A DNA stretch of 22,426 nucleotides, taken from positions 1 to 22,426 of the forward strand of contig JAIQGA010000056.1 of assembly GCA_020072925.1 (NCBI GenBank). The letters are read 5' to 3'. The translations under genes and the position numbers were made by a program. Source of the DNA: Terriglobia bacterium (GTDB taxonomy: Bacteria; Acidobacteriota; Terriglobia; UBA7540). Shown here in pieces: positions 1 through 17,276 of this stretch; within the stretch, counting starts at the first letter, position 1, and every line of letters starts with the position of its first letter. The notes beneath the pieces are model-generated. The model was not told the origin of the DNA and searched no databases. It saw only the letters and a program-made list of their open reading frames with translations.

Positions 1-370
1 TGCGCCGAGGGCGACATGCAGGAAGGCATCGCGACCGCTGGACGATTGCGTCTTGATGCTTTTCGAAAACAGACACCTCGCGAGGACTGGGCTAAGGTCG
101 CCTGGGAACACAACCCCTCAAAATACGTGGCGAAACAATTTCAATCTCCAAAAAGGTGTTGGCTGTTACGCTCCGCCCCAGGACTTGAGCAGTCGTGCCT
201 TCCTCAATCAACCGCGGACTCAATGTAGATATCTCGAACCGGCCGAACCAGGCCAGCTAGCTCGCGCGACCTGCCGATTGTCGAGCACTGCAGCGAGGTA
301 CAGAAACGAACAGCACCGCAAATGGCTGAGGATTGATCCGACCGAAGGCGGGTACGCAGTCGTCGACCTG

Positions 371-1126
371 ATGAACATCGCGAATTTTGCTCCGTATGTG
401 GCTCCCGGCGGAATGAGGATACCCGTCGTCCCTTTAGTTGTGGCACTCTACCACGACTTTAACTCTGGCTTTAGCCTCGCCAATCGTGCAGAGGTTGACA
501 TCCCGGATTTTGGGTCAGACTTCAACTTCTCGCCTGAAGAGCTGGCCCAGTATATCGATGATGAGCCGACAAATCCGCATAACCAGACCTTAGCAGAATT
601 CGGCCAGGGTATTACCTGGACCCGCACGGCAGCCTTACGGCGAACTATACTTCGGCGAGCAGCGGCCATCCGAGGTCGTGCGCGGACGCTCGAGGGTGGC
701 CGTCGTGCTCCCTTGCTGACAGGCACCCCCGCGACACCGCCTGGAGTCAATACGGGTTGGGAGGCGGAACAGTTCGTTGCGCAAGCTATGCGGTCCGCCG
801 GATGGACTGTCTTCGACGTTTCCAGGCAAAGGCTCGGTTACGACTTGATCGCACAAAAAGGACGGGCGACAAAATACGTCGACGCCAAGAGCTCGCTAGG
901 GGTATGCAGCCCGACGCTCACTTCACGCGAATGGCAACAAGCAACGGCGCATGGCGACAACTATGTGCTCGCAGTTCTCGAAAACTTTAACCCTACCGGG
1001 GAGAATATGATCTTGTGGGTGCCAAACCCTGCGACGAACTGCCTTGCTCACGAGTCCACAACAGTTCAGCATTCCATTTCCCGCAGGTCTTGGCTGCTTG
1101 CGCTCGTCCCGTTGGATGACGTCTAG
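371..1126 (+). CDS. DUF3883-domain protein. The true start is uncertain: the ORF is open from 53, but the N-terminal 100 aa are not protein-like.
   Basis: The C-terminal ~120 aa (GWEAEQFVAQAMRSAGWTVFDV..GYDLIAQKG..KYVDAKSS..LTSREWQQA..GDNYVLAVLEN) match the DUF3883 restriction-endonuclease-like signature. ATG at 371 is the first in-frame ATG before protein-like sequence. A frame-1 ORF running from the window edge to 228 suggests a frame change. Confidence 0.5.
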   Translation: MNIANFAPYVAPGGMRIPVVPLVVALYHDFNSGFSLANRAEVDIPDFGSDFNFSPEELAQYIDDEPTNPHNQTLAEFGQGITWTRTAALRRTILRRAAAIRGRARTLEGGRRAPLLTGTPATPPGVNTGWEAEQFVAQAMRSAGWTVFDVSRQRLGYDLIAQKGRATKYVDAKSSLGVCSPTLTSREWQQATAHGDNYVLAVLENFNPTGENMILWVPNPATNCLAHESTTVQHSISRRSWLLALVPLDDV

Positions 1127-1180
1127 CAGGCCGCGACATGGGCCGGTTGGCGCAGAGCGAAGCTCGGTGCAGGAGCGATA

Positions 1181-1292
1181 GTGAACAGCGAATGGTGAAT
1201 TGAGCGACCTTCGCAAAGATTTTGTTCATCCTTCATAATTCATCCTTCATGCCTCATCCTTCATAATTCAATCTTCACCATTCACATTTCGC
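1181..1292. repeat. Palindromic intergenic element: 10-bp perfect inverted repeat GAATGGTGAA (1190-1199) / TTCACCATTC (1274-1283) flanking three 14-nt tandem units CATCCTTCATnnnn (1227, 1241, 1255).
   Basis: Read directly from the sequence. It lies between the convergent genes 371..1126 (+) and 1298..1948 (-). Confidence 0.8.
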
Positions 1293-1297
1293 CCGGC

Positions 1298-1948
1298 CTA
1301 TGCCAGGGCTTTCGTCGGGCGCACACTGGCGGAAAGCTTCTGCCATTCAATCAGGAACGACGGGAGGAAGCAGGCGACGGCGATCACGCTCCAGACGGTG
1401 GTCTCAACTCCCAGCACGCCCATGCGGGCGACGGCGGGAATGGCGAGAATGGCGCGCACCACGACAAAAACCGCGGCGAACGGATAGCTGCGCGTCATCC
1501 ACTCGCGGTGCTGCTGGATTCTTCCGCTGCGCACGCAGTAGAGCGCCGTGGCCGTGGTCAGCACCCACGCCGAGGCTTGAATCACCGTAGACATCAGGAG
1601 CGTGGGGATGGGCAGCTTGATGGAGACGAGGAGGGCCAGGGGGGCCGATACCGCCACGCTTCCCACGTAGATTCGTCCCATCAGGCGATGGACCCGCAAA
1701 TGGCGCTGGCGTAAGCGGCTGGAAAATTGGAAGACCCCCAGGAATAGCGCCACGGCGCCTGGGAAACCGTGCAGCATCACCAGCCACGAGACGGGCGCGT
1801 ACCGCTGGCGCAGGAACGAATGAGGATCGAGCAGCAGACGGTCGCGGGTAAACCAAACTACAACCATCAACAAGCAGTACACGAGAAACATCACATGCTT
1901 GGCCTGAATGAAACGGCGACAGGAAACTGCCCAGGCTGCGGTCGCCAT
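1298..1948 (-). CDS. DUF2306-family integral membrane protein
   Basis: 216-aa ORF with multiple hydrophobic helices and the motif HRLMGRIYV typical of DUF2306. SD-like AGGGAGG is 6 nt upstream of ATG 1948. Confidence 0.6.
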   Translation of the reverse strand: MATAAWAVSCRRFIQAKHVMFLVYCLLMVVVWFTRDRLLLDPHSFLRQRYAPVSWLVMLHGFPGAVALFLGVFQFSSRLRQRHLRVHRLMGRIYVGSVAVSAPLALLVSIKLPIPTLLMSTVIQASAWVLTTATALYCVRSGRIQQHREWMTRSYPFAAVFVVVRAILAIPAVARMGVLGVETTVWSVIAVACFLPSFLIEWQKLSASVRPTKALA

Positions 1949-2002
1949 ACGTGCCTCCCTTGTCGGTTGTAGCGCTGAGAGTCCCTAATGACGCTGGGAC
2001 AA

Positions 2003-2031
2003 AATGTAGCACATTTCCCTCAGCCAAACAA
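2003..2031 (-). promoter_or_regulatory. Candidate sigma70-like promoter for the DUF2306 gene (minus strand reads TTGTTT-N17-TACATT).
   Basis: Hexamers read on the reverse complement with 17-nt spacing, ~50 nt upstream of ATG 1948. This is inference only. Confidence 0.3.
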
Positions 2032-2379
2032 TGGAAGGCTTTGAAATATAGACAATATGCCTCTGCTGCGGATTCCCAGGCTTGAGGGTTCGCTTGGAGC
2101 GCAGCAAAGTGCGAGAGTGTGGCATTATGCCACATGGGTAGGCTCGCTCTTTGCCCGCCGCTTCTGGCCGAGTCGAGGATGGGAATTGTGGAAAGGAGTC
2201 TGGTGTTCGAGTATAAAACGCTGATGGTAAATCACTTATTTCACGGATGGCTCGTTTGGCTGGGAGTGACTATTTGTCTGTTTACGGAAATTAGCCGCTG
2301 GCGCGTTCGGAGACGGTGACGGATGGCACGGCCCGCACGTGCCGCTTCGAGTCCAATGGCTCGCCACGCTCGGGGCCAG

Positions 2380-3501
2380 CTATTGGCTGAGGACGCGCTC
2401 GTAGAGCTTCTCGTAAAGCTGGATGATAGAGCCGCTGCAGAACTGGCTGAGCGCGCGCTGGCGCGCGGCGCGTCCCATCTCCTCGCGGCGCTCGGGATTC
2501 GTAAGGATCTCCAGAGTGCGCGCGGCCATCGTCTGCACATCGTGCGGCTGCACCAGAAATCCGTCCACGCCGTCGCGGACCACTTCCGGCAATCCGCCTA
2601 CGCGCGAACACACCGGCGGCACCGCGCACGCCATCGCTTCCAGCGCCACCAGCCCGAAGGATTCGATCTCGCTCGGCAGCAGCAACACGTCCGCGCAGTT
2701 GAGCAGATCTTGCACCTGGCTCTGCTTTCCCAGGAAGAGCACGTCCTGCGTCAACTTGCGCTCGCGCACCATCCACTCGCCAATGGTGCGGTCCGGGCCG
2801 TCACCGATCATCAGCAGCTTGGCGGGGATTTCTTTCCGCACCAGCGTGAAGACATCGATCACATCGGGAATGCGCTTCACGGGGCGGAAATTGGAGAGGT
2901 GAACCAGAACCTTCTCCTCCGGCTTAGCGAAGTCGTCGCGACGGCACGCGCCATCCGCGGGGCGAAACACGTCGCAGTTGACGAAGTTGGGAATCACCTC
3001 CACGGGCCGCTGCACTTCGAGCTGCTCCGCGGTGATCCGCTTGAGGTATTCGGAAATGGCCGTGACGGCGTCGCTCTCTTCGATGGAGAACCGCGTGATG
3101 GGAAGATACGAGCGGTCCATGCCCACCAGCGTGATGTCCGTGCCGTGCAGCGTGGTCACGAAAGGCAGCCGGTGCGGTCGCAGCATGGCGCGCGCCAGAT
3201 AGGCGCTTACGGAGTGCGGAATGGCGTAGTGCACGTGCAGCAAATCCAGCGACTCGTTCCTGGCGACGTTGCACATCTGCGTGGCCAACGCCAGCGTGTA
3301 AGGCGGGTGGTCGAAGAGCGGATAATTCACCATCTCGACTTCGTGGAAGTGAATGCGCTCGGAAGCCTCGGTGATGCGCACGGGCATCGCGTAGCTGATG
3401 AAGTGCACATCGTGACCGCGTGCCGCCAATTCCAGGCCTAGCTCCGTGGCCACCACGCCGCTCCCGCCGTAGGTGGGATAACACGTAATGCCAATGCGCA
3501 T
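2380..3501 (-). CDS. bshA: N-acetyl-alpha-D-glucosaminyl L-malate synthase (bacillithiol biosynthesis GT4 glycosyltransferase BshA)
   Basis: The N-terminus [24 protein letters not shown].VHFI is near-identical in pattern to Bacillus BshA ([22 protein letters not shown]). Conserved [17 protein letters not shown], HxSNFRxVKR, GDGP and ESFGLVxLEAMAC blocks run along the full length. Confidence 0.85.
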   Translation of the reverse strand: [373 protein letters not shown]

Positions 3502-3542
3502 GGGATTAAGGATGATGCTCCGCGCTGAATCGTTACGGATGG

Positions 3543-3953
3543 TTAAGAGTGAGGAGTCGCTTTCTTGGCGGCGACCTTTTCAGCCGCTAACACTACGATC
3601 TGCTTCACGCTCCGCCGGTCGCCTTTTTGGGAGTAGTAAATCAGCACGTTGGTTCCCGGCTTCAGGTCCTCCAGTTTCCTCTTATCCCCCTCGGCGTTTT
3701 CGACCTTCATGCCTTTCTTGATGGGAAAAATCTCCGTCACTCCGCCCTGCACGGTGTTGACATTCAGGATGCTGCGCTTCATGTCGAGTGATTGCACAAT
3801 CCCGCTGAAGGCCTGATTGGTGGAGCCGCCCGAGATCTTGTCCAATCCCGGAACGTGACGCTTGCGCTCCTGGCCTTGGGCTTTCCCCAGATTTGCGCCA
3901 CACAGGCAGAACACCAGGGCCACTAACATCACGCAGACCAAGCGCGTAAGCAT
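3543..3953 (-). CDS. Small secreted/periplasmic protein of unknown function. The ORF is open to 4091, but the likely start is the Met before the signal peptide.
   Basis: Hydrophobic signal-peptide-like segment MLTRLVCVMLVALVFCLCGANLG followed by a soluble ~110-aa domain. The 46-aa upstream extension is charged/low-complexity. Confidence 0.5.
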   Translation of the reverse strand: MLTRLVCVMLVALVFCLCGANLGKAQGQERKRHVPGLDKISGGSTNQAFSGIVQSLDMKRSILNVNTVQGGVTEIFPIKKGMKVENAEGDKRKLEDLKPGTNVLIYYSQKGDRRSVKQIVVLAAEKVAAKKATPHS

Positions 3954-4199
3954 TCGCTCGGTTCGCGGCTCATCGCGGAGGTCATGACGACTTGAGGGTA
4001 CGGGGCTAACCGCGTCCTCGTCCTCGTAGCGCCAATTGCTCGCCAACTCGGACCGCACTCTCCTGTGGCCGGTATCCATGTGCAAGCTCATCCTAGGTCA
4101 GCCATTGGAGGCTGTCAAGTCAGGTGAGATAAGGCGATAACCCCAGAGGCCGCAACTTTGCCGCTCCGGGGACAGGCCAGGGCGCGAGGTTAGAAAAAG

Positions 4200-4544
4200 C
4201 TAATCTTCCAAATCGGGCTCACGCAGAAGATTGCCATCGCCGCTGCCATTCTTCGAGTCCGCTTCTTTATATATGTAACGAATGCAGGATTTCATGATGA
4301 GGAGGTTGGGCTCGTGGGCGCGGTGCACCTTGATGCAGTGCTTGTCGTACCACTCGATCACCCCGTGGATGATCTCACCTTGGTCGAGCACTACCACCAC
4401 AGGCGTGCGCGCTTGCATCTGCTTCAGGTAATAAAAATTTTCCGCGTTAGTCTGTTCCGGAGGTGTGGGCTTCTTCCGTTGCACGCGCGTGCCAAGTTGG
4501 TCCTGGACCTCAGACAGTGACGGACGGATAAGTCTTCGGTTCAT
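4200..4544 (-). CDS. Sm-like / Hfq-like RNA-binding protein with N- and C-terminal extensions
   Basis: The core FYYLKQMQARTPVVVVLDQGEIIHGVIEWYDKHCIKV..LLIMKSCIRYIY aligns with the Hfq Sm1/Sm2 pattern (PV.IYL.NG..L.G.IESFD.F.ILL...Q.VYKHAIS). A strong SD AAGGAG lies 9 nt upstream of ATG 4544. Confidence 0.5.
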   Translation of the reverse strand: MNRRLIRPSLSEVQDQLGTRVQRKKPTPPEQTNAENFYYLKQMQARTPVVVVLDQGEIIHGVIEWYDKHCIKVHRAHEPNLLIMKSCIRYIYKEADSKNGSGDGNLLREPDLED

Positions 4545-4918
4545 TGTCGTTTACTCCTTAGGCCCGCTCTTGCGGGCTGAACGATGGGAGTCTCGTGGCC
4601 CTTGAAACCGCGAGTGATGCCGCCACTTACGTAGATGATATGAGAGGCCTGCCGGTTTCCTAAAGGCCCGCACAAAATTCAGATTAAGGAAAACAGCCGC
4701 GAATAGATGAATGTTAACACAGCCTCCTGGAGTCCGCAACGGGTTTCTCCTGTCTCCAGCCCGCCCATACGAGGAGACGTTCGCGAACCGGCCTTACTGC
4801 TCGTCAATTCCTGGGTTACGGACGTTCCTGTACGAGAAGGCCTGTGGGTACGCCGTGGCAGTGTGATTGACGGGGATTTTTCGTTCCTCGAGCGGCGGTC
4901 GGACGCTCCCGGGTTCGG

Positions 4919-6019
4919 TCAACCGGTCTGGGTCAGAGTCGATTTTCTTCCCGTGACGACGTCAATACCGAGCTCTTCGAACCCAAGTTGTTGGTTGACG
5001 TTGCGGATCTGGAGGCGGTAGGCCCGGTCCAGCCCTGCTTTCAGGCATTCCAAGTCCTCCAGGCTTGAGCCGGCTGCCCAAGTTTTGAGGCGGGCAACAA
5101 GGTCGACATTCATGACTTCTTTGTCTCCGCCTGGTTCGCGAAGCTGGAGCACATCGCGGAGCAGCGAAAAGCCGATTCGCAGCGTGCGATCGAAATCCTC
5201 GCGATTCTCCGCCAGCGCCTTGGCGGCATCAAACAACGATGACCAAGGCGCCGGGTCGCGGCCCCCCGGCGCCACGCGAAGCACGCTCTCAAGAAAATCC
5301 AGCCAGGGTTGCCGGCGGCGCTGGTAATCGGCCAGGTCAAAGGCCTTCGCCTGCGCCACGCTCCCGGCGGCAACGCGCGCCGCCAGCGCCTGCTGGGGCT
5401 TCGTCAAGCGCTTGTCCTGGGCCAGCAGCGCCAGAATCGATCCCTCATCGACAGGCTGAAATGCCAGGCGGAAGCATCGCGAACGAATGGTGGGCCGCAA
5501 TTCGTAGGCATTGGGGCAAACCAGGATCAGTGTCGTGGTGTCGGGAGGTTCCTCGAGCACCTTGAGTAGCACGTCGATGGCCTGCCAATGGATGGCCTGC
5601 GCGTCGTCCACAATGAAGACCCGTCGGGGAAACTCGAAGGGGCAGGTGTAGGCGACGTTCCGAAGCTGGCGGATTTGCTCCGTCAGGATGTAGCTGGTGA
5701 TCGGCTCGATCAGTTGCAGATCGAAGTAGACCAGGCCTTCGACTCGTCGGGCCGCCTCTTTGATCTCGCGGCGGCGGGCGAGGTCCTCGCGCCCGAGGGC
5801 GATCATCTCTTCCGCCTTGCGGCACCGCCGGCACTCGCCGCAGAAATCGCCCTGATTCTTCTCGCACACCAGTCCTTTCGCCAGCATCATCGCCAGCGTC
5901 TTCTTTCCTACGCCGTCCGGGCCTGCAAAAAGCATGGCGCCGGGAATCCGCCCGCTTCTCAGGATTTTGCGGACCGTCGCCACTGCGCTCGCATTGCCGA
6001 TAAAAGAATCGAAGCCCAT
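4919..6019 (-). CDS. holB: DNA polymerase III delta' subunit (clamp-loader AAA+ protein)
   Basis: Walker-A-like GPDGVGKKT, zinc module CxxGxCxxCRxCRK, the SRC motif (TIRSRCFRL), and ~365 aa length. It lies immediately downstream of tmk, as in many bacteria. The ORF extends to 6106, but only through the heptamer repeat array; start chosen at MGFDSF (6019). Confidence 0.85.
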   Translation of the reverse strand: MGFDSFIGNASAVATVRKILRSGRIPGAMLFAGPDGVGKKTLAMMLAKGLVCEKNQGDFCGECRRCRKAEEMIALGREDLARRREIKEAARRVEGLVYFDLQLIEPITSYILTEQIRQLRNVAYTCPFEFPRRVFIVDDAQAIHWQAIDVLLKVLEEPPDTTTLILVCPNAYELRPTIRSRCFRLAFQPVDEGSILALLAQDKRLTKPQQALAARVAAGSVAQAKAFDLADYQRRRQPWLDFLESVLRVAPGGRDPAPWSSLFDAAKALAENREDFDRTLRIGFSLLRDVLQLREPGGDKEVMNVDLVARLKTWAAGSSLEDLECLKAGLDRAYRLQIRNVNQQLGFEELGIDVVTGRKSTLTQTG

Positions 6020-6027
6020 AACCAGCT

Positions 6028-6192
6028 GAATCGGGAGTCGGGAGTCGGGAGTCGGGAGTCGGGAGTCGGGAGTCGGAAGTGGGAAGCGGGAAGTAAGTGA
6101 AGACAAAGCCCGGCCATCCCGGGGCGAATCGGTTGGCGGTTCTTGCCTACCTACTACCTACTTGTTGCCCCCCGACTTCCTACTTCCGATTC
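6028..6192. repeat. Heptamer tandem array (GGGAGTC x6 at 6033-6074, then degenerate GGGAAGn copies) forming an imperfect inverted repeat with 6147-6192 (CCGACTTCCTACTTCCGATTC).
   Basis: Direct reading of the sequence. The reverse complement of the right arm, GAATCGGAAGTAGGAAGTCGG, matches the left arm GAATCGGGAGTCGGGAGTCGG at 18 of 21 positions. It sits between tmk and holB. Confidence 0.85.
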
Positions 6193-6834
6193 TCTTTCCA
6201 AGAAGTCGTCCACCAGCCTCCGAATTTCCGCCTGGACCTCCGCGATGGGCCGGTCCGCGCGTACCACCTTGACGCGGCTTGGTTCCTGCCGCGCGATGGC
6301 CAGATACCCGGCGCGAACGCGTGCGTGGAATTGTCGACCCTGCGCTTCAAAGCGCCCGCGCCGGGAGTTTCGGCGGGTCTCGCGACCCTGCGCTCTCGCC
6401 AGGGCTATCCGCGGGTCCAGGTCGAGCACGATGGTCAAGTCAGGCTGAGTATCTCCACAAACAATCTGGTCGAACGCCCGCACCGTCTCTACCCCCAGCT
6501 TCCGCCCGTAGCCTTGGTAGGCGAGTGATGCATCATTATACCGGTCGCTGACCACCGTTTCGCCACGGCCGAGGGAGGGCCGGACCACTTCTTCAAGATG
6601 CTGCGCGCGCGCCGCGTAGATTAGCGCCAGCTCCGCCATAGGCGCCAATCGCTTAGTTGACAAATCCAGCAGGATTCCGCGAATGCGCTCTCCGACGCGA
6701 GTCCCGCCGGGCTCGCGCGTGGCTCGCAAGCGGTGGCCGAGTTTGCGCAGGTATTGGACCAGCAGGCGATGCTGCGTGCTCTTGCCTGTTCCGTCGATGC
6801 CCTCGAGCGTGATGAAAAGGCCGGGCTGTTTCAA
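6154..6834 (-). CDS. tmk: Thymidylate kinase
   Basis: N-terminal FITLEGIDGTGKST P-loop, DRY motif region (VVSDRY), and 226 aa length. The ORF opens at TTG 6834; no in-frame ATG upstream. The last ~12 codons lie in the repeat arm. Confidence 0.9.
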   Translation of the reverse strand: MKQPGLFITLEGIDGTGKSTQHRLLVQYLRKLGHRLRATREPGGTRVGERIRGILLDLSTKRLAPMAELALIYAARAQHLEEVVRPSLGRGETVVSDRYNDASLAYQGYGRKLGVETVRAFDQIVCGDTQPDLTIVLDLDPRIALARAQGRETRRNSRRGRFEAQGRQFHARVRAGYLAIARQEPSRVKVVRADRPIAEVQAEIRRLVDDFLERESEVGSRGATSR

Positions 6835-6842
6835 ATGGTTAT

Positions 6843-6941
6843 CCGTTGTCCGTGGTTCGTTGTCAGTTGTTTCCCGACATCCCTCACGTGGCCCAAGTGG
6901 TTCCTCCGCGCAACGAACAACTGGCGACGGACTACGGACGG
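6843..6941. repeat. Imperfect palindromic element built of heptamer units (CCGTTGT CCGTGGT TCGTTGT CAGTTGT ... AACAACTG GCGACGG ACTACGG ACGG).
   Basis: 8-bp perfect CAGTTGTT/AACAACTG core plus degenerate flanking arms. Its left arm begins 9 nt beyond the tmk TTG start codon (6834), in the divergent tmk/yggS intergenic region. Confidence 0.6.
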
Positions 6942-7032
6942 TCGAGGAATCCTAGCATTGCACAGCGCGAAATAACAAGGCGCCAGCAATCATGCCAACG
7001 AATGGTAGAATGTCCCGACCCGCGGAAATGCT

Positions 7033-7725
7033 ATGGTCAACATCCCGGAGAACGTCGCGCGCGTGCAGGAACGAATCGCCGTGGCGTGCCGCCGCAGCGG
7101 GCGGCGCGTGGAGGACGTGAGGCTGGTCGCCATTTCGAAGACTATGCCTTGTGAAGCCATTCGCGCGGGCTACGAGGCGGGACTGCGCGAATTCGGCGAG
7201 AACCGCGTTCAGGAAGCCAAGGCCAAGCGGCCCGCCCTGTCCGATCTGACAGCCACCTGGCACCTCGTCGGTCATCTCCAGACCAACAAGGCCAAGCCGG
7301 CGCGGGAATTGTTCCATTGGGTTCATTCCGTGGATTCACTGCGGCTGGCGGAGAAGCTTGCGCAGGCCGCGCCATGCAGTTCGGATCGCTTGCCGGTACT
7401 CCTGGAGGTCAACCTGGGCGAGGAGACCACCAAATCGGGTGTCCGCACTGAAGAGATTGCGGCGCTTGCCGAACGGGTCGCGCAGTTTGAAACCTTGGAA
7501 CTGCGCGGCCTGATGGTGATTCCGCCCTTCTTCGAAGACCCTGAGAAAGGCCGCCCGTACTTTCGGCAGCTGCGTGAGTTGGCGAAGGAAATTGAATCGC
7601 GCAAGTTGCCTAACGTTTCCATGCGGGAACTCTCCATGGGCATGAGCCACGATTTCGAGGTGGCCATCGAAGAAGGGGCCACGATCGTCCGCGTGGGGAC
7701 GGCAATCTTTGGGCCGAGGCAATAA
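7033..7725 (+). CDS. yggS: YggS-family pyridoxal-phosphate homeostasis protein (COG0325/PLPHP)
   Basis: 230 aa; ISKT lysine region (VRLVAISKTMP), HLVGHLQTNKAK, the ELRGLM block and C-terminal RVGTAIFG are hallmarks of the family. Confidence 0.9.
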   Translation: MVNIPENVARVQERIAVACRRSGRRVEDVRLVAISKTMPCEAIRAGYEAGLREFGENRVQEAKAKRPALSDLTATWHLVGHLQTNKAKPARELFHWVHSVDSLRLAEKLAQAAPCSSDRLPVLLEVNLGEETTKSGVRTEEIAALAERVAQFETLELRGLMVIPPFFEDPEKGRPYFRQLRELAKEIESRKLPNVSMRELSMGMSHDFEVAIEEGATIVRVGTAIFGPRQ

Positions 7726-7726
7726 A

Positions 7727-7903
7727 TGAAGGCTGAAGTCAGGAGCCAGAACTCAGAAGTCAGAAGGATGAAGGATGAAGGACACTCCCCCGGCGGCGCT
7801 ATTTGATTGCCGGGATGTGGCGTCAACTGGCATCGGACAACTGACAACTGACGACTGACGACTGAGCACTGACTTCTGACCCCGGACTCCGGACCACGGA
7901 CTT
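7727..7903. repeat. Composite repeat: 10-bp perfect inverted repeat CAGAAGTCAG (7754-7763) / CTGACTTCTG (7869-7878) plus several heptamer tandem arrays (GATGAAG x3 at 7766-7782; nACTGAC x5 at 7834-7868; CCGGACn x3 at 7882-7901).
   Basis: Direct reading. It occupies the whole yggS-yggU intergenic space. Confidence 0.8.
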
Positions 7904-7906
7904 CTT

Positions 7907-8224
7907 ATGACTCCGAGCTTTCAACTCGACCGCGAGAACGTTTCCTTCTGGCTGAAAGTGAAACCGCGGTCGGCGCGGGAACGCCTGGGAGTCGACGCGG
8001 CCGGGGAATTACGCTTGGAGTTGCACGCCCCGCCCACGGAAGGGCAGGCCAACGAAGCCTGCGTGCAGTTTTTCGCCCGCGCGCTGCGGCTGCCCCAGGC
8101 GTGCGTGGTCATCCTTTCCGGTTCGAAGTCACGTCGCAAGCTTATCCGAATTACCGGCCACTCGGCCCAGGAAACCGTTGCACAGTTGAAGCGATTGTTG
8201 CAGTCTCAACCGGCAAGTAGGTAA
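7907..8224 (+). CDS. yggU: DUF167 (YggU/UPF0235) family protein
   Basis: 105 aa; the NEACVQFFARAL block and overall length fit DUF167. It is positioned downstream of yggS, as in the E. coli yggS-yggT-yggU cluster. Confidence 0.75.
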   Translation: MTPSFQLDRENVSFWLKVKPRSARERLGVDAAGELRLELHAPPTEGQANEACVQFFARALRLPQACVVILSGSKSRRKLIRITGHSAQETVAQLKRLLQSQPASR

Positions 8225-8228
8225 GAGA

Positions 8229-8375
8229 ATCGGGCCATCGGGTCATTGATCCATTGAGTGATTTGGTGATTGGGTGATTGAAAAAACAAATCCGAATCGT
8301 GGCGCGTCCATTCAATCACCAAATCATACAATCACTCAATCACCCAATGGCCAAGTGGCCCGATCACCTAATCGC
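8229..8375. repeat. Large palindromic element: ~55-bp arms built on GTGATTG/CAATCAC units, separated by a ~27-nt spacer.
   Basis: Left arm 8229-8283 and the reverse complement of 8311-8375 share GTGATTTGGTGATTG and GGGCCA..GGG segments. It is homologous to the element at 12105-12236. Confidence 0.85.
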
Positions 8376-8413
8376 CAGATCATTCGACTCGTCACTATAG
8401 CGCGGAGCCGACA

Positions 8414-9703
8414 TTGAGTTTCCGCCAACGCCTCGAGGAAATCCGCACGGGATTCAAGCCTGCCTTCTGGGTGGCGAACACCACGGAACTGTTCGAGCGC
8501 CTGTCGTACTATGGGGCAAGCGCGGTCCTGGCCATTTATCTGAGCGAACAACTGCACTTTTCCAAAGAGCTTACAGGCTGGATGATTGGAATTTTCGGCT
8601 TTGTGGTCTGGTTCCTGCCCGTGCTGGGGGGAACGCTAGCGGACCGCTTCGGCTTCCGGCGCGCGCTGATGTTCGCTTATCTGGTGATGACCGTCGGCTA
8701 TTTCCTGTTGGGTTCGCTCTCGGCGCCGTGGATGGTTGCGGCGCGCCAGGCTCTGACCGACAAATGGCTCGTATTCGCGATTCTCATGATCCCCGCGCTG
8801 GGACCGGCGGTGGTCAAACCCTGCGTGGCGGGCACGACGGCGCGCGCCTCCACGGAGAATGTCCGCTCCATCGGTTATTCGATTTACTACACGCTGGTGA
8901 ATGTCGGCGGCACGCTGGGGCCGGTCATGGCCTGGCTGGTGCGGAAAAAACTAGGGTGGGGCATTGAAAATGTCTTCCGCGTTTCCGCCCTCAGCGTTTT
9001 CCTGATGTTTTGTGTGACGCTGCTCTTCTTTCGCGAGCCGACCCAATCCGGCGAACAGAAAGTGGCCAGCGTCGCGGCCGCCATCAAGAACATGTTTGTA
9101 GTGCTGGGCAACTTCCGTTTCGTCCTGTTCCTGTTGATCTTTTCGAGTTTCTACGTGGTCTTCTGGCAGGAATTCATTTCCGCCCCGCTGTTTTTGCGCG
9201 GCTACGTCGATCCCAACGCCAACGCTGACCTGTTGCTTTCGATTGACGCGCTGACGGTGATCTGCTTCCAGATTTTGGTCAGCTATCTGACCCGCAAGAT
9301 TCCCGCGTTTTCGGCGATGACGCTGGGATTGCTGATTTCAAGCCTCTCGTGGCTGATTCTGGCCCTTTATCCCACGACAGTGGGCCTGATCGGGTCGCTT
9401 GTGGTCCTGGCACTCGGCGAGATCACCCAGTCCGCGCGCTACTATGAATACGTCTCGCGGCTGGCGCCGCCGGGCCAGCAGGGGCTCTACATGGGCTACG
9501 CGTTTCTGCCCATTGCCATCGGTTACTTCATCGCCGGGCCACTGGGCGGTTACCTGCTGCACTATTTTGGCGATATCCTGCGCCGGCCGCAGCAGATGTG
9601 GTGGGTGGTCACCGCGGTGGGGATTGTCGGCACGGTGTTGATGCTGGCGTACGACAGAGTTTTTCGGCCGGGCGGAGAAAAGGGATTAGGGATCAGGGGT
9701 TAG
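8414..9703 (+). CDS. Proton-dependent oligopeptide transporter (PTR2/POT family, MFS)
   Basis: The N-terminal ELFERLSYYG signature of POT transporters; ~12 predicted TM helices; TTG start with GCGGAG SD-like sequence upstream. Confidence 0.85.
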   Translation: MSFRQRLEEIRTGFKPAFWVANTTELFERLSYYGASAVLAIYLSEQLHFSKELTGWMIGIFGFVVWFLPVLGGTLADRFGFRRALMFAYLVMTVGYFLLGSLSAPWMVAARQALTDKWLVFAILMIPALGPAVVKPCVAGTTARASTENVRSIGYSIYYTLVNVGGTLGPVMAWLVRKKLGWGIENVFRVSALSVFLMFCVTLLFFREPTQSGEQKVASVAAAIKNMFVVLGNFRFVLFLLIFSSFYVVFWQEFISAPLFLRGYVDPNANADLLLSIDALTVICFQILVSYLTRKIPAFSAMTLGLLISSLSWLILALYPTTVGLIGSLVVLALGEITQSARYYEYVSRLAPPGQQGLYMGYAFLPIAIGYFIAGPLGGYLLHYFGDILRRPQQMWWVVTAVGIVGTVLMLAYDRVFRPGGEKGLGIRG

Positions 9704-9713
9704 GGATTAGCAG
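9682..9713. repeat. Short telomere-like tandem repeat GGGATTAG GGATCAG GGGTTAG GGATTAG overlapping the stop codon of the POT gene.
   Basis: Direct reading; about four 7-8-nt units containing TTAGGG. Confidence 0.6.
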
Positions 9714-9808
9714 GATAATGGAAAACCCGTTCGCCCTGTCATTCTGAGCGCAGCGAAGAATCCCCGCATTTGAAGAATCAAGGAAATGAAAGACAGAAAG
9801 ATACCAAA

Positions 9809-10393
9809 ATGAAAAACGGACCGCTTACAAGTAGATTCGAAGAGGCATTTTGCTTGGCTTCCCGTCTGCACGCGACGCAGAAGCGGAAGGGCACAGAAAT
9901 TCCCTACATTGCCCACCTCATGAGCGTTGCAGCGCTGGTGATCGAAGACGGCGGCGACGAGGACGAGGCCATCGCTGGTCTGCTTCATGACGCCGTCGAA
10001 GACCAGGGCGGAAGAGAAACACTGGAAGAGATTTGTCGCCGCTTTGGCGAACGAGTGGCGGGAATCGTCTATGGCTGCACGGATGCGGAGACTCTACCCA
10101 AGCCGCCGTGGCTCGAGCGAAAGAAGCGCTATGTCGACCACATTCGCATTGCACCTCCGGAAGTCCGTCGCGTCTCGAGCGCCGACAAGCTCCACAACGC
10201 GCGCGCCATCCTGGCCGATTTCCGGCATGAGGGCAACCGTTTGTGGGAAAGATTCACCGGCAAGCGCGACGGAACGCTCTGGTATTACCGCGCCCTGGTG
10301 CAGGCCTTCCAGGCAGCGGGCTCGACCCCCATCGTCGAGGAGTTGGACCGGGTCGTGAGCGAATTGGAACGTTTGGTTGCGGAGAGTAAGTGA
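9809..10393 (+). CDS. Small HD-domain (p)ppGpp-hydrolase-like protein (RelA/SpoT-type HD; small alarmone hydrolase-like)
   Basis: HL..VA...., the LLHDAVEDQGG motif and the ADKLHNARAI motif match the RelA/SpoT hydrolase HD domain. It is ~195 aa with no synthetase domain. The ORF is open from TTG 9770; the first in-frame ATG is 9809. Confidence 0.65.
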   Translation: MKNGPLTSRFEEAFCLASRLHATQKRKGTEIPYIAHLMSVAALVIEDGGDEDEAIAGLLHDAVEDQGGRETLEEICRRFGERVAGIVYGCTDAETLPKPPWLERKKRYVDHIRIAPPEVRRVSSADKLHNARAILADFRHEGNRLWERFTGKRDGTLWYYRALVQAFQAAGSTPIVEELDRVVSELERLVAESK

Positions 10394-10409
10394 CGCGGTG
10401 GGAGGCACC

Positions 10410-11591
10410 ATGAACCTGGCGGAAATTCAAGCAGCTCTGCGCGATTCGGGCCTGGATGGCTGGCTCTTCTACGATCACCACCATCGCGATCCGATTGCCT
10501 ATCGCGTGTTGAAGATCAATCCCCCGATGTGCACGCGCCGCTGGTATTACCTGATTCCGGCTTCGGGAGAACCCGCGAAGCTGGTGCATCGCATCGAGCG
10601 CGGCAACCTCGAGGGCCTGCCGGGAACCGTGTACGAGTACTCTTCCTGGCGCGAGCAGCACGACAAGCTGCGAAAGATTTTGGAAGGGAAGAAGCGTGTA
10701 GCAATGGAATATTCGCCGCTCAACGACATTCCCTACGTCGGGCTGGTGGACGCGGGAACCATTGAGCTAGTGAAGGGTTTGGGCGTGGAGGTGGTTTCCT
10801 CCGGTGACCTTGTGCAGCTTTTCGAGGCGCGCTGGTCTGACGCCGCGCTGGCCTCGCACCTGGCGGCGGGGAAGGTGGTTCACGCCGCGGTCAACGCGGC
10901 CTTCGCGATGATTCGGGACGCGGTGCGAGGCGGCAAAGCGCTCGGCGAGTACGAAGTCCAGCAGGAAATCTCCCGCGTATTCGAAGCGGGCGGCGTGATC
11001 GCGGACGAACCGGCCATCGTCGCCGTGAACCGCAACACGGCGAACCCGCATTACTCCCCCACGCGGGCATCGTCGCTGCCCATTCGCGCCAACGATTTCG
11101 TCCTGCTTGATGTCTGGGGAAAGTTGCCGACTCCGGGCGCCGTTTATTTCGACATTACTTGGACAGGATTTGTGGGCGAAGAGGTCCCGCGCCGCTATGC
11201 CGAGGTTTTTTCCATTGTGCGGGAGGCCCGTGATGCTGCCGTGCGTCGCGTCACGGAGGCGCAGGCAGTCGGCCGGGCGCTGCACGGTTACGAGGTGGAC
11301 GACGCGGCGCGCGAGGTCATCTCGCGGCATGGTTATGGTGAGAACTTCGTGCATCGGACCGGACATTCTATTGGCGAAGACGTGCACGGCAATGGGGCCA
11401 ACATGGATAACTTCGAAACGCGTGACCAGCGAAACATCGTTCCGCGCACCTGCTTCTCGGTTGAGCCGGGAATCTACCTGGCGGAGTTCGGCGTGCGCAG
11501 CGAGGTCAATGTATACGTCGAGGCAGGCGGGGCGCGCGTTACCGGGGAAATTCAGCAGGCCATCGTGCCGATCCTTGCCGCTGCGCGCTAA
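10410..11591 (+). CDS. M24-family metallopeptidase (Xaa-Pro aminopeptidase / creatinase-like)
   Basis: Metal-ligand blocks LLDVWG..YFDITWT, HRTGHSIGEDVH, SVEPGIY and RSEV. GGGAGG SD 6 nt upstream of ATG 10410. Confidence 0.85.
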   Translation: MNLAEIQAALRDSGLDGWLFYDHHHRDPIAYRVLKINPPMCTRRWYYLIPASGEPAKLVHRIERGNLEGLPGTVYEYSSWREQHDKLRKILEGKKRVAMEYSPLNDIPYVGLVDAGTIELVKGLGVEVVSSGDLVQLFEARWSDAALASHLAAGKVVHAAVNAAFAMIRDAVRGGKALGEYEVQQEISRVFEAGGVIADEPAIVAVNRNTANPHYSPTRASSLPIRANDFVLLDVWGKLPTPGAVYFDITWTGFVGEEVPRRYAEVFSIVREARDAAVRRVTEAQAVGRALHGYEVDDAAREVISRHGYGENFVHRTGHSIGEDVHGNGANMDNFETRDQRNIVPRTCFSVEPGIYLAEFGVRSEVNVYVEAGGARVTGEIQQAIVPILAAAR

Positions 11592-11671
11592 GTTGTGTTA
11601 ACTTCGTTGGTTCGGAGCGCCACATCCGCGCCTTTTCTGGGGCCGCGCGGCGCCCCTTGCCTTCGGAAACT

Positions 11672-12106
11672 ATGGCCGGAAAAAACGTTCAGGAAGCAAC
11701 CGCCGAGAAAGCGAAACCCGCCGCGGCGCCCCACCCGCCGCTCGCGCGGATGATTCGCCTCTGCGTCGCGGCCTGGCTAATTCCGGGGTTTGGGCATTTC
11801 TTGCTGGGCCGGAAATGGCGAGCGCTTATTCTCTTCGTCTCGATCCTGGCCATGTTTTTCCTGGGCCTGGCGATGCAGGGAGAGTTTTTTCCGACCAATT
11901 CGGCCTCTTATCTCGAAACCCTGGGCTATCTGGGCGAGATGTGCGTGGGCGTCGCGATGCCGGCGGCGAAGTTCTTCGGCTACGGGGGCGGTAATCCGTT
12001 CTTCGTCAGCTCTGATTACGGCACCGCCTACCTTGTTTCCGCCGGCATGCTGAACGTGCTCGCCGTCCTGGACAGCTACGACATTGCCCTGGGCAGAAAA
12101 CCGTGA
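11672..12106 (+). CDS. Integral membrane protein of unknown function
   Basis: 145 aa with 3-4 hydrophobic segments (LIPGFGHFLLG.., ALILFVSILAMFFLGLAM, VSAGMLNVLAVL) and coding-like GC3. Start at the first ATG; the ORF is open from TTG 11657. Confidence 0.5.
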   Translation: MAGKNVQEATAEKAKPAAAPHPPLARMIRLCVAAWLIPGFGHFLLGRKWRALILFVSILAMFFLGLAMQGEFFPTNSASYLETLGYLGEMCVGVAMPAAKFFGYGGGNPFFVSSDYGTAYLVSAGMLNVLAVLDSYDIALGRKP

Positions 12107-12236
12107 TCCATCGGGTGATTGAGTGATCGGGTGACTCAGCGATTGAAGAGGCGGAGCAGGCGGGTTTGCTTTTTCAATCGCAAAATCACACAATCACCAA
12201 ATCACTCAATGAACAAATGATCCAATTATCCTGATG
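12105..12236. repeat. Palindromic GTGATTG-unit element, second copy of the family seen at 8229-8375.
   Basis: The reverse complement of the right arm (GGATCATTTGTTCATTGAGTGATTTGGTGATTGTGTGATT) closely matches the left arm of the 8229 element (TGATCCATTGAGTGATTTGGTGATTGGGTGATT). Confidence 0.85.
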
Positions 12237-12407
12237 GCCCTGACTCACTTCCCCGCTCTCGTACTGTTTGCTCTCCTGGTCTCCGTGGTGTTCGGCCTGC
12301 TGAGCAAGGACACGCCGCGCGATCGAGTGATTTACGGCGCCAAGGTTTTTGGCGCCTTCGTCGGCGTGGCCCTGGCGCTGGGCTGGCTGATGTACTTCCT
12401 GCCTTGA
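12234..12407 (+). CDS. Possible 57-aa two-helix small membrane protein
   Basis: ATG..TGA ORF (MALTHFPALVLFALLVSVVFGLLSKDTPRDRVIYGAKVFGAFVGVALALGWLMYFLP) with strongly G/C-biased third codon positions, as in neighbouring genes. No clear SD, and its start lies inside the repeat arm. Confidence 0.35.
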   Translation: MALTHFPALVLFALLVSVVFGLLSKDTPRDRVIYGAKVFGAFVGVALALGWLMYFLP

Positions 12408-12531
12408 GTCCCCGTGAGGACATCCTCCGAACGTCACCCCGGCGCGACGGACCATTTGTAGCACGGGCATCCCGCCCCTGAGCACGGCCAAGGTGGCCGT
12501 GCTACGTGCACGACTACATTTGCGCTTTGCC

Positions 12532-12560
12532 TTGACTTCGCTTCGCCCGCGTCTTAGAGT
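12532..12560 (+). promoter_or_regulatory. Candidate sigma70 promoter TTGACT-N17-TAGAGT upstream of the NfeD/flotillin operon
   Basis: Hexamers with 17-nt spacing ~85 nt upstream of ATG 12647. This is inference only. Confidence 0.35.
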
Positions 12561-12646
12561 ATGCCTCGACCGAAGGATCTCCTCGCCCGGACAACGCGCT
12601 GAGTAGTTGGCGAGCGCGCGTTCTCGCCTGACGGAGGCTTTGCCAC

Positions 12647-13198
12647 ATGGCTTCGCTGGTGGGTTTGTCAGCATTCGCAATCTTCCTCGGAATCGCGGCT
12701 CTGGGTTTTTTCTTCCTGATTTTCAGCCTGTTTTTTGGAGAGTTGTTTGGACACGCGGACATCGGCGGCCACGACGCTGATTTCCATGGCGACCTTCACG
12801 GCGTAAGCTTTTTCAGTTCGCGGGTCATGAGCGTTTTCGTGACCGCGTTCGGAGGCTTTGGCGCTATCGGCATTCATCTTGGCTACGGCATCGGCCTCAG
12901 CACGGGAATGGGCCTGGCCGGAGGGCTGGTTTTCGGCGCCTTGATCTATCTCTTTGCGGCCTTCCTTTTCAGCCAGCAAGCTTCGAGCGACATCCGCGTG
13001 AACGACCTGCTCGGCAAGACGGCCCAGGTCATCGTGGCCATTCCACGTGGTGGCCTGGGGCAGGTAAGCTGCGTGCTCGGGGAAAGCGTCGTGGAACGAA
13101 TCGCGCGCTCGGCGGATGGGGAAGAAATACCCGCGAATGCGGCGGTTAAAATTCAGACGATCGTCGGAGAGACCTGCGTGGTGCGCCGCGCGGAATAA
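12647..13198 (+). CDS. NfeD-like (YuaF-type) membrane protein with C-terminal OB-fold, partner of flotillin
   Basis: N-terminal TM helices followed by a C-terminal beta-rich segment (GKTAQVIVAIPRGGLGQVS..GESVVERIA.....IPANAAVKIQTIVGETCVV) typical of the NfeD short form. It lies immediately upstream of an SPFH/flotillin gene. ACGGAGG SD. Confidence 0.7.
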   Translation: MASLVGLSAFAIFLGIAALGFFFLIFSLFFGELFGHADIGGHDADFHGDLHGVSFFSSRVMSVFVTAFGGFGAIGIHLGYGIGLSTGMGLAGGLVFGALIYLFAAFLFSQQASSDIRVNDLLGKTAQVIVAIPRGGLGQVSCVLGESVVERIARSADGEEIPANAAVKIQTIVGETCVVRRAE

Positions 13199-13264
13199 TC
13201 ACAGCTTCGGGAGGCGCGGAAGTCATCGCCGGCCTCGAAGCATGAACTCTTAAGGAGAACTCCC

Positions 13265-14863: not shown

Positions 14864-14989
14864 AGCTGCCCTCGCGCTTCGCGCCGCCGGTTTAGGGAAG
14901 GACTCAGGATCCCGCAGTCGTGAACTCGCCACACCACGTCCGGTGCGCAGGACTCTCGTGTCGACTTCCGTGTTCGGAAGGGAAACAAT

Positions 14990-15454
14990 ATGCCCTCCTG
15001 TCAGCTTACTTCCAAGACCAACAACGCTGATCCCGACGTACTGGTTGTGCATTGCAGCGACCACCGACTTCAGGCGGCGTTCTACGAATTCCTGAATCTC
15101 AAACTAAACCTCAACGAGAATTACGACCTGCTGGTACTTCCCGGCGGGCCGCAGTGCCTGACGCTGGTCGAGTATCTTCCCAAGTTTTCCTGGGCAGGAT
15201 GGAAGTGGGTGCGGTTCCTGGTGGACAGCCACGATCTCAAGCGCCTGATTCTGATTCAGCATCAGGACTGCGCCTGGTACAAGGACCTGCCTCTGCACTT
15301 GCACTCCTCGACGGAGCCGCGAAGCCGGCAGGAAGAAGACCTGCGGCGGATTGGCCAAACCCTGCGCAAGGAGCGCCCGGAACTGGCCCTGGAACTCTAT
15401 TACGCCGGGTGGAACGCTCAGGACGAAATCACCATGGATACAGTTTCCGCCTGA
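14990..15454 (+). CDS. Short divergent beta-class carbonic-anhydrase-like protein (metal-binding CxDxR ... HxxC motifs)
   Basis: VLVVHCSDHRL (CxDxR after a beta-strand) and LILIQHQDCAW (HxxC after a beta-strand) about 70 residues apart, matching beta-CA zinc ligand spacing. YDLLVLPGGP sits in place of the GDxFVxRNAGN block. Its stop codon overlaps the next gene's start (TGATG at 15452-15456). Confidence 0.45.
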   Translation: MPSCQLTSKTNNADPDVLVVHCSDHRLQAAFYEFLNLKLNLNENYDLLVLPGGPQCLTLVEYLPKFSWAGWKWVRFLVDSHDLKRLILIQHQDCAWYKDLPLHLHSSTEPRSRQEEDLRRIGQTLRKERPELALELYYAGWNAQDEITMDTVSA

Positions 15455-16716: not shown

Positions 16717-17276
16717 ATGTTTCTCGATCACGCTCCGCGTTCCCACGAATAGTGATGACGCCTCGGATCGCCACTCCTCCCTTTGCCGACAAGCAATCTT
16801 AACTTGGGTGTCCTCAACCCCGGGCGAGAGGTTTGGGCGTGCCGACGCCGGGGAGGGTGGCTTGCGCTGCGAGGGCCTTCGCGACCGGAAGCCTTTCGGG
16901 TTCGATTAAGTAACGCGGCGGCTTCAGCACCGGGATCTCAAAATAGTTCTCGAGGACGATGCGCGCCGGAACTTGCAGGATATCCGGTCCGCAGTCACCG
17001 GCCGCGACACTCCCGCTCAGACAGCGGAACCGCCCGAATAAGCGCGCCGCTGCGCCTGAAGCCCAACCTTATCATCGGCGGCTATGGGCACTTCACCTAT
17101 CACTTCGATTACTGGGACCGACGGGAAGCAATTGTGACACTCACACCCTGGTGCCGAAGCTCCCCGAATTGAGGTGGTTACTGTAGCGCCGGCTCCGTGA
17201 CCCGCCCGAGTTTTGTATCCCCTCAGTTCAGAGGTTTTCGCAAGGAATCTGTTTCAGGATGATCGAAAGTCATGCT

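Follow-up and report, generated by a model that had tools for sequence, protein, structure and literature searches.

Tandem heptamers and octamers paired into intergenic hairpins in a Terriglobia bacterium and its relatives

The 22,426-nt contig JAIQGA010000056.1 of a Terriglobia bacterium (phylum Acidobacteriota, assembly GCA_020072925.1), hereafter called the window, carries holB, tmk, yggS, yggU and a series of other genes that were mapped with Pfam scans and lists of open reading frames (ORFs). Interspersed with these genes are six imperfect palindromes, E1 to E6, whose arms are composed of short tandem repeats, and one lone tandem array, E7 (Table 1). This work describes the architecture of these elements, their distribution over related loci and their turnover at orthologous sites, and weighs the explanations that have been considered for them.

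Table 1. Genes, repeat elements and conserved segment of the window, with the inverted-repeat arms and the folding z-scores (against shuffled sequences, plus / minus strand) of the elements.
Feature	Position	Strand	Location and character	Inverted-repeat arms (complementarity)	Fold z (+ / -)
NOV_C-domain protein	53-1126	+			
E1	1181-1294		Spacer of convergent genes (NOV_C-domain stop 1126, DUF2306 stop 1298)	1183-1199 / 1274-1290, 17 nt (82%)	-2.2 / -3.1
DUF2306	1298-1948	-			
GT4 glycosyltransferase	2380-3501	-			
Hfq-like	4200-4544	-			
holB	4919-6019	-			
E2	6028-6192		Between two minus-strand genes, tmk (stop 6154) and holB (start 6019)	17 nt (88%)	-3.5 / -3.3
tmk	6154-6834	-			
E3	6842-6942		Divergent tmk/yggS spacer; 23-28 bp stem of CCGTTGT-type heptamers	6848-6871 / 6916-6939, 24 nt (83%)	-4.0 / -1.2
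Conserved non-repeat segment	6946-7032		Beside E3, context outside the repeat; from alignment with relatives		
yggS	7033-7725	+			
E4	7727-7905		Whole yggS-yggU spacer; begins 2 nt past the yggS stop, ends 2 nt ahead of the yggU ATG	7728-7763 / 7869-7904, 36 nt (72%)	-2.5 / -1.9
yggU	7907-8224	+			
E5	8229-8380		5 nt past the yggU stop; GTGATTGn versus CAATCACn octamers	54 nt (78%)	-8.4 / -7.1
MFS transporter	8414-9703	+			
E7	9681-9713	+	Four GGGATTA-type units spanning the MFS stop codon (9701-9703)	none	about 0
HD-domain protein	9770-10393	+			
M24 peptidase	10377-11591	+			
DUF6677	11657-12106	+			
E6	12105-12236		Between DUF6677 stop (12106) and 57-aa ORF (12234); octamer hairpin of the E5 unit family	44 nt (75%)	-5.3 / -4.2
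57-aa ORF	12234-12407	+			
Further genes	up to window end				

The original prediction had described intergenic palindromes with arms of roughly 7-nt tandem units. Tandem Repeats Finder (TRF), which returned arrays in all of them but E3, together with an inverted-repeat search and folding identifies E1 to E6 as real, imperfect inverted repeats, with arm pairs of 17-54 nt and 72-88% complementarity in each of the six, although the units of E5 and E6 measure 8 nt and the two arms frequently differ in unit number. In E1, about ten TTCAnnn units on the right side (1225-1294; TRF periods 7 and 14 at 1225-1270) face about four GnGAAnn units on the left (1183-1210), and pairing is restricted to the last four TTCAnnn units against the left GnGAAnn array. 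As predicted, TCCTTCAT in E1 reads as the reverse complement of ATGAAGGA at 7766-7782 within E4.

The left arm of E2 consists of approximately eight copies of GGGAGTC (6031-6094; TRF score 94, 93% matches) and faces a right arm with fewer units, of the CTACCTA and CTTCCTA types (6143-6192). A small GC hairpin (6109-6123) forms the apex, where a terminator-like site lies on the minus strand (6123-6109). The element folds at -78.1 kcal/mol and ends 8 nt from the holB start. Most elements are intergenic, but the right arm of E2 runs into the coding end of tmk and encodes its final 13 codons (6154-6192). In strain L162, which is 97.8% identical, an 11-nt indel falls in this tmk-coding arm (Tmk of 222 aa versus 226 aa), so the repeat shapes a variable Tmk tail.

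E3 begins 7 nt from the tmk start codon and folds at -49.3 kcal/mol. TRF reports no array row for it; its heptamers were seen by reading the sequence directly (CCGTTGT, CCGTGGT, TCGTTGT and CAGTTGT versus ACAACTG, GCGACGG and ACTACGG). E4 combines GAAGTCA and GAAGGAT arrays on the left (7735-7782) with CAACTGA, CGACTGA and CCGGACn arrays on the right (7824-7905), all of TRF period 7. A 26-codon ORF starts from the TAAATG overlap at the beginning of E4; a coding role was rejected, since an early stop in the related locus L168 shows that it is not conserved. E5 is the strongest structure among the elements (-66 and -69 kcal/mol on the plus and minus strand), with TRF period 8 at 8253-8280 and 8313-8348; the same period was found in E6 at 12110-12134 and 12175-12218. 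E7, predicted as a telomere-like array with inverted-repeat symmetry, is indeed a heptamer array (TRF period 7, 4.3 copies, 9681-9710), but it lacks an inverted partner and folds no better than its shuffles, which makes it a lone array and not a palindrome.

The arrays are far more numerous than chance would give. TRF returned 15 rows of period 7 or 8 in the window, seven of them with a score of at least 40; over 100 simulations from a second-order Markov model, the corresponding means were 1.09 and 0.02. Among the 19 spacers of the window, folding is much better than that of shuffles only where E3 to E6 sit. E4 and E5 recur identically, or with 99.4-99.8% identity, in independent assemblies from six samples, which excludes an assembly artefact. 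An Rfam search yielded nothing at the gathering thresholds, and its sole match in E-value mode (mir-H1, 28.6 bits against a cut-off of 97) is due to chance; blastn of E5 against a plasmid collection gave no match. Detection itself depends on tolerance for imperfection: an exact-match detector (TRF plus ungapped complementarity) was too strict and caught only one of the six window elements, and blastn-short on DNA complementarity underrates stems rich in G.T pairs.

A sample of 80 genome and 80 metagenome loci around yggS homologues was collected, together with close-relative contigs found via YggU. Of these, 154 loci (1.91 Mb; locus names below start with L) were scanned: arrays were located by TRF, genes were called from codon usage by a self-trained caller, and in a partner test RNAduplex energies against the real flanks of an array were compared with those against matched random flanks. 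Raw RNAduplex array-flank energies were dropped, as they did not separate real partners from random flanks. The nearest genomes in the species-level collection are metagenome-assembled genomes (MAGs) of Terriglobia/Acidobacteriota with 74-77% YggS identity. The metagenome-contig scan gave no relative above 75% YggS identity, and strain-level copies were found by protein look-ups. The lineage-wide counts describe syntenic slices from relatives.

Within the 154 loci, 265 intergenic arrays have period 7 (182) or 8 (83), while periods 6, 9 and 10 account for 6, 33 and 22 intergenic arrays. Coding arrays of period 7 and 8 number 58 and 46 (104 in total) even though genes make up 83% of the bases, and periods 6, 9 and 12 dominate inside genes. 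Per base, period-7/8 arrays are about 12-fold denser outside genes, which bears out the predicted intergenic enrichment. A complementary partner within at most 200 nt was detected for 45-48% of the intergenic period-7/8 arrays, against about 3% of the coding arrays and of the null. Array density is highest in the clade of the window (YggS at least 70% identical, 243 kb), with 4.2 arrays per 10 kb, compared with 1.0 per 10 kb in other Terriglobia-like loci; in a small outgroup sample it drops to 0.15 per 10 kb in four non-acidobacterial loci and to 0 in two Blastocatellia loci. The same hairpin architecture is present in MAGs with megabase-scale contigs (MFD bins). The dense, recurring class that had been proposed from the window alone therefore recurs in the related DNA: hairpin arrays are a lineage-wide feature of Terriglobia and not a peculiarity of the window.

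Tabulated relative to gene ends in the relatives, the elements are stop-proximal: their median distance is 8 nt to a stop codon and 21 nt to a start codon (p = 2.5e-4), and 64% lie within 10 nt of a stop codon. Distances were taken from the TRF array borders, since the hairpin base, when read from minimum free energy folds of spacers with 15 nt added on either side, ran up against the limits of those flanks. Among spacers of 80 nt or more, paired arrays are present in 8.2% of the tandem, 9.6% of the convergent and 5.8% of the divergent ones, and their density per kb in divergent spacers is about half that in other spacers. The start codons beside E4 (yggU), E2 (holB) and E3 (tmk) have no obvious Shine-Dalgarno sequence on reading. 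The terminator signals that were suggested as a check did not materialize: none of the 11 hits of a sequence scan lies at an element base, and shuffles gave 14.2 hits. A run of at least four T follows only 7 of 55 related elements, and the T content over the 15 nt past the last array is 0.31 versus 0.23.

The elements persist at orthologous sites among relatives whose YggS is 75-90% identical. Arrays or hairpins occur in the tmk/yggS, yggS-yggU, yggU-MFS and post-DUF6677 spacers of L002-L006 and L167-L173, with units that are related but different and with differing unit numbers. Orthologues of E2 are present in L168 and L173, the corresponding spacer of L170 being only 65 nt long. E4 has orthologues with other unit numbers in L167, L168, L171, L173 and L002-L006. 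The E5 orthologues of L167, L169, L171 and L173 vary in unit number, which is also unequal between their arms; the L169 copy has seven unit motifs in its left arm versus four in its right. E6 orthologues (L169, L171 and L002) keep locus-specific unit variants. In gap-rich comparisons with relatives the elements are 50-85% identical, at or below the third-codon-position identity of the adjacent genes (66-83%), and every orthologous spacer hairpin is still strongly folded. Over shorter times the elements are quiet. In a contig 99.66% identical to the window, none of the 37 differences falls in the 732 element bases; the elements are not contingency loci and are not hypervariable among strains. 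Strain L162 has five substitutions in E3, two of which turn G.U into A.U and C.G pairs, and the E3 stem is 90.6% paired across six orthologues.

Sequence turnover at E3 contrasts with its flank. The segment 6946-7032 is 96.6%, 79% and 77% identical to relatives, versus 64-70% for the E3 hairpin. It contains two motifs of the extended -10 type: TGCTAGGAT points towards tmk on the minus strand, and TGGTAGAAT points towards yggS on the plus strand. Judged by these motifs, they look like divergent promoters, in which case E3 is probably the 5' untranslated region of tmk-holB.

The unit repertoire is wide. Dozens of canonical units were found, many of them once, even within one 20-kb locus. Others recur at non-orthologous sites, namely GGTTTCAA, AAGTCAG, AACTGAC, AAGCTAG and GTGATTG; GGTTTCAA accounts for 22 arrays in nine Acidobacteriaceae-type loci. 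Arrays of different elements have a unit in common (at most one mismatch) in 22.7% of within-locus pairs and 9.1% of between-locus pairs, compared with 1.8% in a letter-shuffled null; related copies elsewhere thus exist, and the sharing of units between elements is far above chance. In the window, the GGATGAA unit occurs in E1 and E4 in opposite orientation, the CGGACnA and ACAACTG units occur in both E3 and E4, and E5 and E6, with 80-83% identical arms, are the sole resembling pair. Hairpins with like arms have unrelated loops.

The unit GGTTTCAA also stands out in Acidobacteriaceae-type MAGs, where near-perfect (GGTTTCAA)n / (TTGAAACC)n hairpins directly follow stop codons (L014 at 2092-2206 and 16776-16881; L055 at 3195-4547). 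The two hairpins of L014 lie 14 kb apart and have near-identical 34-nt arms with unrelated loops. These hairpins may constitute a dispersed family.

Given the repeats, their periodicity and pairing, their intergenic enrichment, their persistence at orthologous sites and their proximity to stop codons, we propose with moderate confidence that E1 to E6 are long simple sequence repeat (SSR) hairpins that arise by slippage, are co-transcribed with their neighbours and act as RNA stem-loops comparable to the repetitive extragenic palindromes (REP) and bacterial interspersed mosaic elements (BIME) of other bacteria. Arm units would be gained and lost by replication slippage in steps of 7-8 nt. Among the long SSRs of bacteria, heptamers are reported to be the most common, and slippage of the polymerase has been proposed as the cause (Mrazek 2007, as summarised in PMC4679880). 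The one-sided expansions of E1, E2 and the L169 copy of E5 are what slippage predicts. Complementarity of the arms would be kept or restored by selection on pairing, by template switching between the hairpin arms, or by both; template switching can homogenise and extend inverted-repeat arms (PMC13100816). Slippage and re-pairing together would leave the architecture at its locus while the sequence turns over. The elements appear to sit within transcription units next to stop codons and would therefore be co-transcribed, which makes activity as an RNA stem-loop the most likely mode of action. Candidate effects are protection of 3' ends, processing of the RNase III type, partial termination and masking of the start region next to the element. 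They do not have the look of a canonical terminator, a promoter or a transposable element.

Several observations weigh against this proposal. Presence/absence polymorphism, which the original prediction suggested looking for, does occur between relatives: L170 is devoid of E4 (its yggS-yggU spacer measures 18 nt) and of E5, which indicates that both are dispensable. Covariation in the E3 stem over the six orthologues is not above the shuffle control, and the unequal arms imply that pairing is not strictly maintained. Pairing energies show no sense/antisense asymmetry (36 versus 43 arrays, p = 0.63); a strand-specific RNA constraint via G.U pairs is thus undetectable, and a DNA-level origin or a lack of function fits equally well. 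Unit sharing at 5-12 times the shuffled null means that pure slippage is insufficient. In addition, the gene caller under-calls (83% coding) and its start codons are uncertain. Taken with the dispensability of E4 and E5, the lack of strand asymmetry and of covariation would also be compatible with a phenomenon at the DNA level that is largely neutral or selfish.

A more far-reaching version of the slippage proposal is speculative, and we regard it as unlikely. It would see in the elements a hitherto unrecognised class of self-renewing structural repeat of Terriglobia, whose stems could pair anew in other registers and be extended again by slippage and template switching, and which occupies about every second spacer in one clade. 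There it would have been co-opted as a standard intercistronic or 3'-end RNA element that brings a stop codon and the next start codon together at the base of the stem, with E4 as an example and perhaps a factor that favours certain units.

The non-random unit repertoire keeps two rival explanations alive at low probability. According to the first, which we also judge unlikely, the elements are non-autonomous mobile elements, such as MITEs (miniature inverted-repeat transposable elements) or REPINs, dispersed by a transposase (for example a RAYT-like TIRYT enzyme), and the tandem arms are a by-product. The excess of shared units within and between loci, the resemblance of the E5 and E6 arms, the near-identical arms of the two distant L014 elements and the GGTTTCAA-type hairpins at non-orthologous sites in nine loci would all follow from dispersal, and TIRYT tyrosine transposase genes and one family of terminal inverted repeats have been reported in Acidobacteria (PMC3733652). 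Mobility fits poorly, however, with copies that share their arms and have unrelated loops, with the conserved orthologous positions and locus-specific E6 variants, and with the many unit families inside 20 kb of one genome. In the sequences read, no terminal inverted repeats were seen outside the arrays and no target-site duplications at the borders. The unrelated loops, the orthologous positions and the lack of visible duplications also set the elements apart from MITEs. None of the 20 window ORFs covered by the Pfam scan (53-17172; ORFs past 17172 fall outside it) matches a transposase family.

The second, somewhat less probable still, holds that the units are sites for a sequence-specific DNA- or RNA-binding protein within a regulatory or nucleoid-organising network, as proposed for the TAACTGA repeats of Beggiatoaceae. 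A restricted repertoire common to several species, with AACTGAC, AAGTCAG, GGTTTCAA and GTGATTG as recurring units, is in line with this, as are the arrays of E4, E3 and E2 that reach to 2-8 nt from start codons without an obvious Shine-Dalgarno sequence, a placement resembling that of TAACTGA (PMC4679880). Dozens of unrelated units, many of single occurrence even in one 20-kb locus, count against this; every element has both orientations, the elements as a whole lie nearer to stops than to starts, and no candidate protein was identified.

At a comparably low probability, G-quadruplex action of G-rich arrays, like that of the GGGNATC repeats of Xanthomonas and Nostoc, would explain E7 and the left arm of E2 only. 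Both match the canonical motif of four G3 tracts with N(1-7) spacing: with at least four tracts in a G-rich heptamer as the criterion, E7 (GGGATTA x 4) and the E2 left arm (GGGAGTC x 6) qualify, and E1 and E3 to E6 do not. In E7 the tracts number exactly four and are on the sense strand at a stop codon; in E2 the G-rich arm is on the antisense strand, at most 75 nt upstream of holB. These are the two preferred placements described in PMC4692102. Only two of the seven elements are covered in this way, the units of the others not being G-rich, and the array is degraded in L168 and L170.

Ordinary but long Rho-independent terminators are a very unlikely explanation. The elements are placed right after stop codons, occur in convergent and tandem spacers, are followed by mildly raised T content and include one terminator-like site in the E2 apex. 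Against this stand the scan, which found none of its sites at element bases and no more of them than in shuffles, the scarcity of T-runs downstream, stems of 25-50 bp that far exceed terminator stems, and the positions of E2 and E4 between apparently co-transcribed genes and of E3 in a divergent spacer. Chance or assembly artefact is practically negligible: short-read assemblers can mis-assemble repeats, but the simulations fall far below the observed array count, MEGAHIT, Logan and NCBI MAG assemblies of different samples give the same sequences, and the architecture is present in the megabase contigs of the MFD bins.

Short tandemly repeated repetitive (STRR) sequences are dispersed intergenic tandem heptamers of heterocystous cyanobacteria, with several unit families per genome (CCCCAGT, TTGGTCA and CAACAGT). 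They are present in high copy number and are not known to have a mechanism of movement. To our knowledge they have been described as direct arrays and are not typically hairpin arms. REP elements are copies of one conserved palindrome of 20-40 nt, often tagged with GTAG and linked to RAYT transposases. The likeness to both systems that was proposed from the window holds for heptamer periodicity, intergenic and stop-proximal placement and dyad symmetry, but not for the sequences themselves. With STRR the elements have intergenic tandem heptamers and several unit families in common; their units are different (GGGAGTC, CCGTTGT, GAAGTCA, CAACTGA, GTGATTGn and TTCATCC), their host belongs to the Terriglobia, and period 8 forms a second mode. 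Like REP and BIME, they are extragenic, have dyad symmetry, lie near stops in apparent transcription units and could plausibly form stem-loops at mRNA 3' ends. Unlike REP, BIME and REPIN, they have stems of 25-50 bp built from short tandem units of variable sequence with unrelated loops, and the conserved palindrome is absent; on reading, no GTAG/CGTC tag of the REP type common to the ends of E1 to E6 was evident, although no systematic scan was made. Intrinsic terminators have a short GC-rich stem with a U-tract directly behind it; the scan detected no such site at the element bases, and most elements lack a U-tract.

The closest precedent are the inverted GGGAATC heptamer arrays of Xanthomonas, which lower the novelty of the present elements. 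Tandem arrays of GGGAATC in Xanthomonas and of GGGGA(C/T)T in Nostoc are over-represented between genes (Rehm et al. 2015, PMC4692102). In Xanthomonas, 70-75 convergent array pairs lie close together and are able to form stem-loops; the heptamers are rarer between divergent ORFs and are located near stops in sense or upstream of ORFs in antisense orientation, and the repeat type is usually kept between species while its length varies (PMC4692102). The Terriglobia elements agree in their intergenic tandem heptamers, inverted pairs, scarcity in divergent spacers, stop proximity, and conserved type with variable length. They differ in that one G-rich family is dominant in Xanthomonas and Nostoc, where a G-quadruplex is proposed, whereas dozens of mostly non-G-rich families and an 8-nt mode are found here, about 46% of the arrays are paired and the host belongs to the Acidobacteriota.

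Two further classes come close. Among long SSRs with 5-11-nt units, heptamers are the most abundant, and such SSRs are enriched in large, high-GC genomes of non-pathogens (Mrazek 2007, via PMC4679880 and PMC4692102). The Terriglobia arrays resemble them in having head-to-tail units beyond chance and in the concentration of periods that are not multiples of three outside genes; as far as those summaries go, the long SSRs are described as direct arrays, without systematic hairpin pairing or orthologous persistence. The TAACTGA repeats of Beggiatoaceae, Cyanobacteria and Bacteroidetes are located directly upstream of starts that lack a Shine-Dalgarno sequence and are inverted once in 170 (MacGregor 2015, PMC4679880). 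Similarly, the right E4 arm, with its (C/G)AACTGA / CGACTGA units, reaches to 2 nt from the yggU ATG, a start likewise without an obvious Shine-Dalgarno sequence. TAACTGA is a single direct unit, whereas here CAACTGA and CGACTGA are the nearest units, the pairs are inverted and the placement is biased to stops. A literature search found no description of such elements in Acidobacteriota. New here are the phylum, the many unit families including octamers, the high hairpin fraction, the density in one clade, and orthologous persistence combined with turnover.

The surrounding genes yielded a number of additional observations. The ORF of 57 aa that directly follows E6 is hydrophobic and shares 98% identity with its counterparts in L169 and L171, whereas DNA-level identity of the adjacent genes is about 81-87%; it probably encodes a genuine small membrane protein under strong constraint, without a Pfam family. 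The start of the yggU-MFS spacer, orthologous to 8225-8413, contains a conserved stretch in L167 (1366-1693), L170 (4887-5024) and L171 (1747-2091) that is called as a 30-aa gene in L171 and looks like a small membrane protein; it is absent from the window, L169 and L173, where the E5 hairpin directly follows the yggU stop. The NOV_C-domain ORF was missed by the caller trained on local codon usage, a sign that its composition may be atypical and that it was possibly acquired horizontally; L173 has a different gene at that position. The Hfq-like protein comprises 114 aa, of which only residues 41-93 match an Sm-like family, just below or around the Pfam cut-offs; the gene is also found next to holB in L170 and L173. 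Lastly, a flotillin/SPFH gene contains a tandem duplication of 33 nt at 14415-14481 (two copies, 76% matches), which amounts to 11 codons and keeps the frame.

The hairpin arrays extend the heptamer-repeat phenomenon beyond cyanobacteria and Xanthomonas to a third phylum, in which pairing is frequent (about 46%) and not occasional. Acidobacteriota are among the most abundant soil bacteria, and little is known about their gene regulation. If about 4 arrays per 10 kb holds genome-wide, a 5-Mb genome of the window's clade would have approximately 2,000 arrays, as extrapolated from 243 kb, and these would affect operon and terminator prediction, searches for small RNAs and the quality of MAG assemblies. 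As a natural model, the elements would allow one to study how RNA or DNA structure is built up and preserved through slippage and inverted-repeat homogenisation despite sequence drift.

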